In this document: positions 44,687-46,510 of the stretch, one piece after another
Layout of the letters: each line of letters opens with the position of its first letter
Numbering within the stretch: position 1 is the first letter of the stretch
Assembly (NCBI RefSeq): GCF_044324875.1
Contig: NZ_CP172185.1
Strand: one strand, 5' to 3'
Source: Escherichia coli
GTDB lineage: Bacteria; Pseudomonadota; Gammaproteobacteria; Enterobacterales; Enterobacteriaceae
DNA: 64,000 nt
Position numbers and translations under genes: made by a program
The notes under the pieces: generated by a model
What the model saw: the letters and a program-made list of their open reading frames with translations, nothing else
Database searches by the model: none
What the model was told of the DNA's origin: nothing

Positions 44687-46510
44687 TCATCGAGGATCTG
44701 ACTGGTTGTTTTTAGTATCATCACCACAAATGATGGTTAATGCGTTGTAGATCAGTCTGCGTCTGTTCTTGTTTTCAGCATTATTTCCATACAACATCAT
44801 GACGTTTTTAATATCATCAACCGGTGATATTACATAATCAACCAATACGCCAAGCTTCTCAATACATTGCAGTAAAGTATATTTGTGTCTGCCCGTAAAT
44901 AATCCTATCAGGTTTTCTTTACTTTCACGACTGGATAATATTTTGTTCTCTGTAATTAATTCAGCCAACGTTTCACCATCGTAAACACGTTCTTTATCTA
45001 TCAGAATATTTATCTTATCTAACGCCCTCTCTACATTATCAAGAAGACCTGTAATATACGGAGGCTGAATATCTGACTTTGTACTAATATTTGCAAGCAT
45101 CGAATTATACATTTTAATGACACGCATCAGAGTAAAATTATTCGCATCATATTGTATTTCATCTTCATTATACGCAGGATCCGTCACGACCCTTAAGTCC
45201 ATAAATGCATCCTGATAAGCTTTTACATAATCAAGTAATTCGAACAGTGAACCATGCTTTATTTTCTCCCTGTTTAATTTGATCTCCAGCGCTATCCTGA
45301 GAACTGAAAAAGCGCCGGGAAGATACCCAGAAGGTAACTCGTATTTTTGGGATTCATCATAAAACCGAAGAGCTTTGTGGAGTTTGTTCCGCCGAATCAG
45401 ATAAATAAGGACGGCCAGTAACATGTAGCACCTGGTCACATAACCACGGGCATTCTGCAACTGTTCAAAATAATTAATAATGTTTTCCAGATATACATCA
45501 TCATAACTTTTCTTATCAGAAAGATTAAACACCATATCTTTTAAAGATTCGATATATTCTTGTGATTTATCATCAAGTGACACAATATAACGAGTTAATG
45601 CTCCTTTGGGGCCACTCTCAAACTCATGAAACCGTTCAAGTAATGCTCTTGCATAAGGCGTTGTGTCAAAAATATTAAAATCATAAAGATAGCGTGCAGC
45701 GTAGCCATACAACCCATGTACCCAAAGCCCTTCTCTTATCAGCACTCTGAGATAATATGCAATACTGTCAAGTATCTTTACCTTCCGTTGCATATCAAGC
45801 AAAATACTTAATGAATAAAATGCATAATAGAACTTGTCAATGTTGTTGAGTATTCTGTCCAGCTCACTCTTATCAAGCTTCTTCTCTCTGTAATCCTTCT
45901 TGTATTCATTCTTACAGGCCTTTATATATTGTTTCATAAGGCTCTTCCTTTTACCGTACCCTTTTCGAATAGTTCCCTGGTATTTTCCCAGCTCATACAT
46001 TTTTCCGTTTTCCCGAAAATCTTCTCTGTTAAATCCCAGTTCAGCAAGATACTCCCGGAGATAACGTTTAACGGCAGCCTCATCGCTTTCTGTACCAGAG
46101 TAATCCAGGCAGGGACAATATGATTTTTGCAAAAAATTATAGATATGATAATAAAACCCTGTTTCATTCTCCGGACGATATGTGTTATATATATCCAGCA
46201 CAATAAAAACAACTCCAAAGCTTTTCAGAAAATAGTTACGGATATATTCGGACTTTAATGTTGAATACACAGGGTAAGAATTCATCATGTAATAAAAATA
46301 TTCATACCGGGAAAATATAATTCGCCGTTGTTCCAGACTATACACCCCTTCAGCATCAATAATGTGACTGAGCTCATTATAACGTTGATCCCAGAATCTT
46401 TGATGCGCTCCAAAATCAGTACTCTTCCGCTTATCTCTCGGACTCTCTCCTTCCTTAAACAACTCAAAAACTGTACAAATATCATACAAAAGATTTGTAA
46501 ACATGCGCAT
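44687..46510 (-). CDS. Hypothetical protein, 607 aa, AT-rich, no recognisable domain
   Basis: Long uninterrupted ORF in low-GC DNA; K/E/Y/N-rich, predicted largely helical; divergent from the AlpA-like gene. Confidence 0.6.
   Translation of the reverse strand: MRMFTNLLYDICTVFELFKEGESPRDKRKSTDFGAHQRFWDQRYNELSHIIDAEGVYSLEQRRIIFSRYEYFYYMMNSYPVYSTLKSEYIRNYFLKSFGVVFIVLDIYNTYRPENETGFYYHIYNFLQKSYCPCLDYSGTESDEAAVKRYLREYLAELGFNREDFRENGKMYELGKYQGTIRKGYGKRKSLMKQYIKACKNEYKKDYREKKLDKSELDRILNNIDKFYYAFYSLSILLDMQRKVKILDSIAYYLRVLIREGLWVHGLYGYAARYLYDFNIFDTTPYARALLERFHEFESGPKGALTRYIVSLDDKSQEYIESLKDMVFNLSDKKSYDDVYLENIINYFEQLQNARGYVTRCYMLLAVLIYLIRRNKLHKALRFYDESQKYELPSGYLPGAFSVLRIALEIKLNREKIKHGSLFELLDYVKAYQDAFMDLRVVTDPAYNEDEIQYDANNFTLMRVIKMYNSMLANISTKSDIQPPYITGLLDNVERALDKINILIDKERVYDGETLAELITENKILSSRESKENLIGLFTGRHKYTLLQCIEKLGVLVDYVISPVDDIKNVMMLYGNNAENKNRRRLIYNALTIICGDDTKNNQSDPR

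Follow-up and report, generated by a model that had tools for sequence, protein, structure and literature searches.

In the CP4-57 island of Escherichia coli K-12 the gene order is int-yfjH-alpA-yfjI-yfjJ, with yfjH transcribed divergently from alpA, the gene that heads the operon alpA-DUF3987(YfjI)-YagK/YfjJ. A comparable arrangement occurs in PIME1, where a LuxR gene lies divergently beside alpA and the alpA partner is essential for excision. Regulators divergent from an excision/replication operon are also known from the SaPIs (Stl) and from ICEBs1 (ImmR/RapI), and they are fast-evolving and element-specific. An overexpression screen picked out YfjH as blocking the retron-Sen2 toxin RcaT (10.1101/2020.06.22.160242). 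The PICMI satellites of Vibrionaceae are built from int, iolg, alpA, up1, a DUF3987 primase gene and up2, and the last of these, formerly of unknown function, was found to encode a novel defence function (PMC10803314). The hotspot concept for P4-like satellites is cited in the same paper (PMC10803314).

The locus discussed here belongs to a 64,000-nucleotide stretch of the E. coli contig NZ_CP172185.1, hereafter the window. A sequence-only reading had singled out one long, intact, low-GC ORF as a candidate defence gene, and the ORF is indeed long (607 aa), intact and low in GC (about 36%). It is called gene X in the following, and it is accompanied by these features:

42449..42774, minus strand: remnant of a TOTE PrimPol-helicase gene, decayed hotspot cargo (RefSeq pseudogene in the identical DNA of strain 135, offset 23999).
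42914..43477, minus strand: inovirus-Gp2/YagK-like gene, intact, 187 aa (ORF; annotated as intact in RefSeq).
43478..44686, no strand: AT-rich stretch of 1.2 kb without genes, between gene X and the Gp2-like gene (RefSeq copies).
44609..44644, no strand: perfect 36-bp palindrome, 18+18 nt without a loop, 100% complementary (repeat search).
44687..46510, minus strand: gene X, coding for a 607-aa protein predicted to be all-alpha (ORF, AF2 model, dN/dS, synteny).
46511..46610, no strand: divergent X/alpA control region of about 100 bp (alignment of 10 lineages).
46611..46859, plus strand: alpA, AlpA-family HTH regulator/excisionase (RefSeq on identical DNA, PHROG excisionase/regulator matches, PF05930 in relatives).
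46875..48421, plus strand: DUF3987, YfjI-like primase/helicase gene (two ORFs of 154 + 361 aa, PHROG helicase/primase matches).
48750..51168, plus strand: IS21-family insertion with istA/istB ORFs, between DUF3987 and int.
51289..52497, minus strand: P4-type tyrosine integrase of the island (ORF, RefSeq annotation).

The AlpA-like regulator divergent from gene X and the nearby P4-type integrase are thus as the sequence-only reading had described them. The alpA ORF extends over 46599-46859, with 46611 as the likely true start according to RefSeq and the family alignment, and it is the first gene of an alpA-DUF3987 operon. Gene X had further been placed between two damaged neighbours. This is correct for DUF3987: alignment to the intact SMS-3-5 copy shows that the window strain has lost 19 bp at 47335, a frameshifting deletion private to it. 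It is incorrect for the YagK-like neighbour, which is intact at 42914-43477, the decayed one being a second Gp2/YagK-like copy at about 41822-42385. The IS21-family element is missing from the related islands L001 and L002 (SMS-3-5 and strain 135), and this insertion, together with the 19-bp deletion, suggests that the window copy of the island is immobilised. Between the window integrase and those of X-bearing elements from other genera, identity is 73-74%, and the relatives' integrases contain the domains Arm-DNA-bind_3, Phage_int_M and Phage_integrase.

As for the borders of the island, a search within 10 kb gave no att-like direct repeat of more than 13 nt. A minimal element of about 7 kb that ends with gene X is consequently unsupported, and the X-bearing islands appear to be larger. 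An RtT-like element (Rfam RF00391, 46 bits) is located at 52716-52852, just outside the integrase, and ARAGORN detected no tRNA or tmRNA over the 64-kb window. Among the related islands, L022, L024 and L026 adjoin ssrA, and the int-side neighbours of the E. coli islands in complete genomes vary, being clpA, DUF2726/phoH or RtT/ycdU. Outside the island, on the plus strand at 54224-54417, Rfam places Ysr251 (Yersinia sRNA 251; 191 bits, E 1e-52).

Gene X begins with ATG, and its frame is unbroken over 607 codons. Given its composition, stops are expected at about 7% of codons, which by our own arithmetic puts a chance frame of this length near 1e-19, so that the ORF is not a chance frame. The GC content is 0.356-0.374 over positions 44500-46499, compared with 0.53-0.60 for the flanking raf-type sugar genes and about 0.46 for alpA/DUF3987, and the dN/dS of 0.17 denotes purifying selection. 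Gene X is therefore a real, selected gene. Its DNA is identical or 99% identical in many complete E. coli genomes; it was counted in 233 of the 5426 complete genomes of this species, and the same-type alpA-DUF3987 in 245, the product being named only as a hypothetical protein in RefSeq (WP_001242276/WP_001242278). Selection had already been deduced from the integrity of gene X beside decayed neighbours, and that deduction holds. The argument that led to it is weak, because the DUF3987 frameshift is private to the strain and because gene X is itself disrupted in other genomes by IS1, IS2 or ISVsa5 insertions or by frameshifts.

The gene had also been described as an orphan, which is no longer tenable because a full-length homologue family exists, with relatives across Enterobacterales at 24-38% identity and weaker ones in Aeromonas. 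The pattern scans for relatives used a subset alignment, the full alignment of 15 sequences being too diverse. The sequence-only reading had advised looking at the homologues for an integrase/AlpA context, and in every lineage examined gene X lies about 100 bp from the alpA-DUF3987 operon and diverges from it. An exact-protein look-up in seven distant lineages returned gene X facing away from alpA-DUF3987-YagK/YfjJ, beyond which lies a P4-type integrase, and genome and viral scans added eight more loci with the same gene order. The order is also kept in a second lineage of E. coli, EPEC E2348/69 and O104:H4 among its members, where the gene X orthologue is 611 aa long and 71% identical. YagK/YfjJ follows DUF3987 in all non-E. 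coli lineages examined, and in E. coli a distant Gp2-like gene (22-31% identity) stands on the opposite side of gene X. The general layout starts with int, continues with YagK/YfjJ, DUF3987 and alpA, all pointing towards the integrase, and then has gene X pointing away from it, with variable cargo after. The window shares the CP4-57-related backbone, namely a P4-type integrase, alpA followed by DUF3987, and a gene divergent from alpA.

To avoid circularity, an unbiased sample was seeded from YagK; it gave 79 metagenomic loci, 59 of which had enough upstream sequence to be informative. Gene X was present in 41 of these 59, a YfjH homologue in 10 and other layouts in the remaining 8. In the YagK tree the 18 X-less loci, with YfjH or int in the slot, form one nested clade and the X-bearing loci span deep diversity, so that the occupant of the slot was rarely replaced. 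Furthermore, gene X is present in all informative X-type loci, and turnover is limited to the genes past its 3' end. Because its position is constant, gene X behaves as backbone and not as cargo, contrary to the cargo slot that had been assigned to it: it is the invariant flank, a fixed backbone gene of CP4-57-related integrative islands. Two side observations concern other parts of these islands. In L003 a 1269-aa protein with a weak CHAT-domain match and no PADLOC match is encoded between int and YagK (L003:1020-4829), which points to a further cargo slot on the integrase side. In the X-less sister clade a Fic-domain protein lies between int and the AlpA-like gene (L076:1237-1752, L085:696-1211, L097:1673-2188) and matches the PADLOC candidate system PDC-S04 with an E of 1e-76.

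The equivalence of the slots occupied by gene X and yfjH in the two sister clades raises the question of whether X, like YfjH according to its report, might be a counter-defence or addiction-type protein that guards the island or the host cell against other defence or toxin systems. The reported action of YfjH on RcaT fits such a role (10.1101/2020.06.22.160242); however, it is a single hit in an overexpression screen, homology between X and YfjH is undetectable, and no feature of X indicates a specific target, which makes this explanation very improbable. The candidate homologies of gene X with CP4-57 YfjH and with AbpA/YfjL were both rejected, as the hhalign probability is below 1%. The AF2 model of YfjH, with a pLDDT of 48.7, is too poor for a fold comparison with X.

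The control region between gene X and alpA is conspicuously well conserved. An alignment of 10 lineages, whose X proteins are only about 30% identical, gives it a mean column identity of 68%, and it holds a conserved core of the X promoter and leader at 46521-46560 on the minus strand (...AATGTCCCCTGTGATAAAACGGAAACCAACCGGAG). In the same lineages GAAACCAA(C) is invariant in the leader of gene X, just before the Shine-Dalgarno sequence. This leader motif occurs once in the window, which leaves a repeated regulator box unsupported. Comparison of the two E. coli lineages revealed how this part of the island is inherited: synonymous sites have diverged by 1.02 in X and 1.05 in alpA, against 0.37 in DUF3987, 0.19 in int and 0.16 in Gp2. 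In a sliding comparison the divergent block (about 45-87% identity) covers non-coding DNA downstream of X, X itself, the intergenic region and alpA to its end, and stops abruptly about 55 nt into DUF3987, where identity is 94-98%. Gene X, alpA and the conserved promoter region are therefore co-inherited as one mosaic cassette, and the pattern of the block is that of a putative exchangeable immunity or specificity region. Across genera, identity is 24-38% for X, 44-83% for AlpA, 23-71% for DUF3987, 47-80% for YagK and up to 87% for Int, gene X being the fastest-evolving gene of the module.

The AT-rich DNA at 43478-44686 takes part in the same pattern, since sliding identity places a portion of it within the divergent X-alpA block. 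It is present in every E. coli copy, strongly diverged and with indels between the two E. coli lineages, and none of the RefSeq copies has an annotated gene in it. The palindrome at 44609-44644 lies about 43 nt past the stop codon of gene X and is not followed by a T-run; from its sequence, it could be a terminator, or else a protein-binding or origin-like site.

The statement that gene X has no placeable motif withstood all the searches. No match was found in Pfam, with the single sequence or with 15 family members (E<=0.001), in NCBIfam, in PHROGs, or in the PDB by sequence and by profile, and no family of PADLOC-DB v2 (5027 models) was reached at E<=1. Rfam has no RNA family within or adjoining the gene, and a profile search of a set of 5.8 billion proteins gained no named or fused relatives. 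The remote-homology search and structure prediction that had been recommended gave a confident model and no characterised homologue. The AlphaFold (AF2) model, with a pLDDT of 84.5 and a pTM of 0.83, is all-alpha, with 28 helices; compared with the PDB, AFDB50 and BFVD, it has no convincing match outside its own uncharacterised family. No nuclease, NTPase, TIR, SIR2, protease or membrane segment was detected, and the central region of the protein is hypervariable. On the basis of the model, the fold is predicted to be new and the protein is most likely non-enzymatic and helical.

Pfam recognises no HTH domain in gene X or in the 15 family members (E<=0.001), and only long variants have one, added at the N-terminus. 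These variants, of 865 and 933 aa, represent two deep branches of the family in which an N-terminal HTH and a diverged IS481-type transposase domain are fused to the X domain. They occupy the gene X slot beside alpA-DUF3987, and over 795 aligned residues their mutual identity is 28%:

L013:2938-5739: long variant P0115.
L014:8001-10598: long variant P0103.

Both match NF033577 below its curated cutoff (E 4e-20 for the 865-aa and 2e-23 for the 933-aa variant), and the D/D/E-like residues, when inspected by eye, seem at least partly retained. In PADLOC, P0103 has no match, and P0115 has a weak one to mad1 (E=6e-5) confined to residues 21-42 of the N-terminal HTH. The IS481-type HTH and the DDE catalytic domain are absent from the protein of the window.

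A large helical protein of this kind would suit scaffolding, and X might be a helper-exploitation or mobilisation factor for island transfer, acting through helper-phage packaging or capsid redirection, or through coupling to a conjugative helper. Sid and Psu, helical proteins encoded divergently from the P4 replication operon, offer an analogy. The other backbone genes of the X islands cover only integration and replication, the fast evolution of X could track helper proteins, and three loci of the X family are on IMG/VR contigs. However, the stretches read on two of these contigs (L027 and L031) contain integrases together with defence genes or unrecognised ones, and nothing recognisable as a phage structural gene; no structural relative of X exists among the viral proteins of BFVD and none in PHROGs; and many X islands are tens of kb long and loaded with metabolic or virulence cargo. 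A transfer role is accordingly considered quite unlikely.

The expectation that this type of island hosts a defence hotspot proved right, at a position other than that of gene X. The genes directly past its 3' end change between loci, are often known defence systems and are mostly convergent with X:

L027, L040, L042, L048, past gene X: Hachiman HamA/HamB.
L058, past gene X: HamB-like gene.
L051, L056, L062, past gene X: Lamassu LmuA/C/B (LmuB also in L027).
L043, past gene X: Mokosh MkoA/B.
L035, past gene X: type III restriction enzyme.
L082 (HsdR) and L003 (HsdS/M), past gene X: type I R-M.
L049, past gene X: PDC-M62 (Septu-like).
L044, past gene X: weaker PbeA/type IV-like matches; L067 and L068 have same-sized ORFs.
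L047:12-3328, L050:601-3255, L054:642-3296, L064:795-3613, L034:588-2934, L073:204-2866: unrecognised hotspot ORFs.

No PADLOC model matched the last-named ORFs in L047, L050, L064, L034 and L073, and the layout of the one in L054 resembles that of L050. Because sister loci hold Hachiman, Lamassu, Mokosh or R-M at the same position, these unmatched ORFs are candidates for undescribed defence systems. In E. coli, the first cargo gene past X is the Gp2-like gene (42914-43477), followed by a PrimPol-SF2-helicase protein that carries the NCBI name of a "TOTE conflict system" component, a term for which no paper was found in the searchable literature. The PrimPol + SF2-helicase gene is intact in O104:H4 (786 aa, L019:2651-5011) and decayed in the window. 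Hence, the DNA just past the 3' end of gene X is a true defence hotspot, and gene X is its fixed inner flank.

The direct contact of gene X with this hotspot agrees with the original proposal, in the form that X would be a conserved single-gene anti-phage, abortive-infection or helper-interference protein and would provide the core immunity of the island beside systems that are swapped. Fast evolution combined with purifying selection and a hypervariable centre is found in arms-race proteins, the gene is AT-rich and xenogeneic, and up2 of the PICMI satellites sets the precedent of a gene of unknown function that turned out to be a new defence gene (PMC10803314). This hypothesis is challenged by the absence of turnover at the X position, while the defence genes of the same islands turn over freely, and by the mosaic pattern, which ties X to alpA and not to the cargo. 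Furthermore, X has no effector-type domain and matches 0 of the 5027 PADLOC models. Taken together, an anti-phage function appears somewhat unlikely, though it is a serious rival.

The explanation preferred here, tentatively and at less than even chances, is that gene X belongs to the backbone as the partner of AlpA and most likely has a non-enzymatic part, as sensor or regulator, in an AlpA-controlled excision/replication switch. A regulatory or sensing role is proposed because of the divergent promoters, the co-inheritance with alpA and the conserved control region, and also because of the hypervariable middle, the HTH-fused variants and the LuxR-alpA precedent of PIME1. X and alpA are transcribed back-to-back from the conserved control region of about 100 bp and inherited as one cassette; the X product would be an all-helical binder without enzymatic activity, AlpA's partner in regulation or sensing, possibly with a physical link between the two, and would set or gate how far the alpA-DUF3987-YagK operon for excision and replication is expressed. 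It would probably respond to an external partner that evolves rapidly, such as a helper phage, an invader or a plasmid protein, by a logic that may be analogous to that of Stl in SaPIs, RapI/ImmR in ICEBs1 and LuxR beside alpA in PIME1. The regulator reading is weakened because no DNA-binding domain is detectable, X-less clades exist and some copies are disrupted. A bolder version of it, which is rather doubtful, is that X founds a new class of all-helical sensors or regulators with its own fold and forms with AlpA an exchangeable "specificity cassette" that times island excision and replication, the hypervariable middle recognising a helper or invader protein.

Whatever its function, gene X defines a new protein family, for which Pfam and NCBIfam have no model and structural relatives are lacking, and which is a fixed component of islands with virulence (LifA/Efa1 in EPEC E2348/69), metabolic (the raf operon of the window) and defence cargo. 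Together, X and alpA are a precise genomic landmark for a defence hotspot, with at least seven kinds of known or candidate systems just past X in what is a small sample, and they can therefore be used to mine new defence systems. Should AlpA-driven excision be under the control of X, the CP4-57-like class of islands would have its missing regulator. An X-AlpA specificity cassette, if real, would govern widespread enterobacterial defence and pathogenicity islands, including IE6 of EPEC E2348/69 and an O104:H4 island.

Comparison with the described systems locates gene X among them. Like yfjH, it diverges from alpA at the head of the alpA-DUF3987-YagK/YfjJ operon, and each of the two genes is fixed in its own island clade; unlike X, YfjH is half the size (about 290-318 aa), and in CP4-57-type islands int adjoins yfjH, whereas in X-type islands it is at the far end of the operon. 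With the PICMI satellites the X islands share the integrase, AlpA, the DUF3987 primase, a small ORF by int, genes without an assigned function and a defence hotspot at one end. PICMI elements, however, are about 6 kb long, integrate at fis, lack YagK and have the defence gene up2 and the hotspot downstream of the primase, and no X homologue has been reported from them; in the X islands the hotspot is on the side divergent from alpA. X-type islands are elements of Enterobacterales, some of them at ssrA, and fis does not adjoin the window island. Divergent transcription from an excision/replication operon and a fast-evolving, element-specific sequence are traits that X has in common with Stl, ImmR/RapI and the LuxR of PIME1. 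These regulators have recognisable HTH or TPR domains and 250-400 aa, whereas X has no recognisable domain and no convincing fold match in the PDB. The PIME family itself, with trbJ/trbL and repA, was rejected as the identity of the element, as it is a different element type. In P4-like satellites (int / psu), as in the X islands, an invariant backbone gene borders a locus where anti-phage systems are swapped; psu, delta, sid and alpha are absent from the X islands, and X is unrelated to Psu or Int. Literature searches on the RefSeq accessions returned no papers. Neither the gene X family nor the X-alpA cassette has a description in the searchable literature; both are new, within an element type that is already known, that of the CP4-57/P4-integrase islands with a PICMI-like logic.
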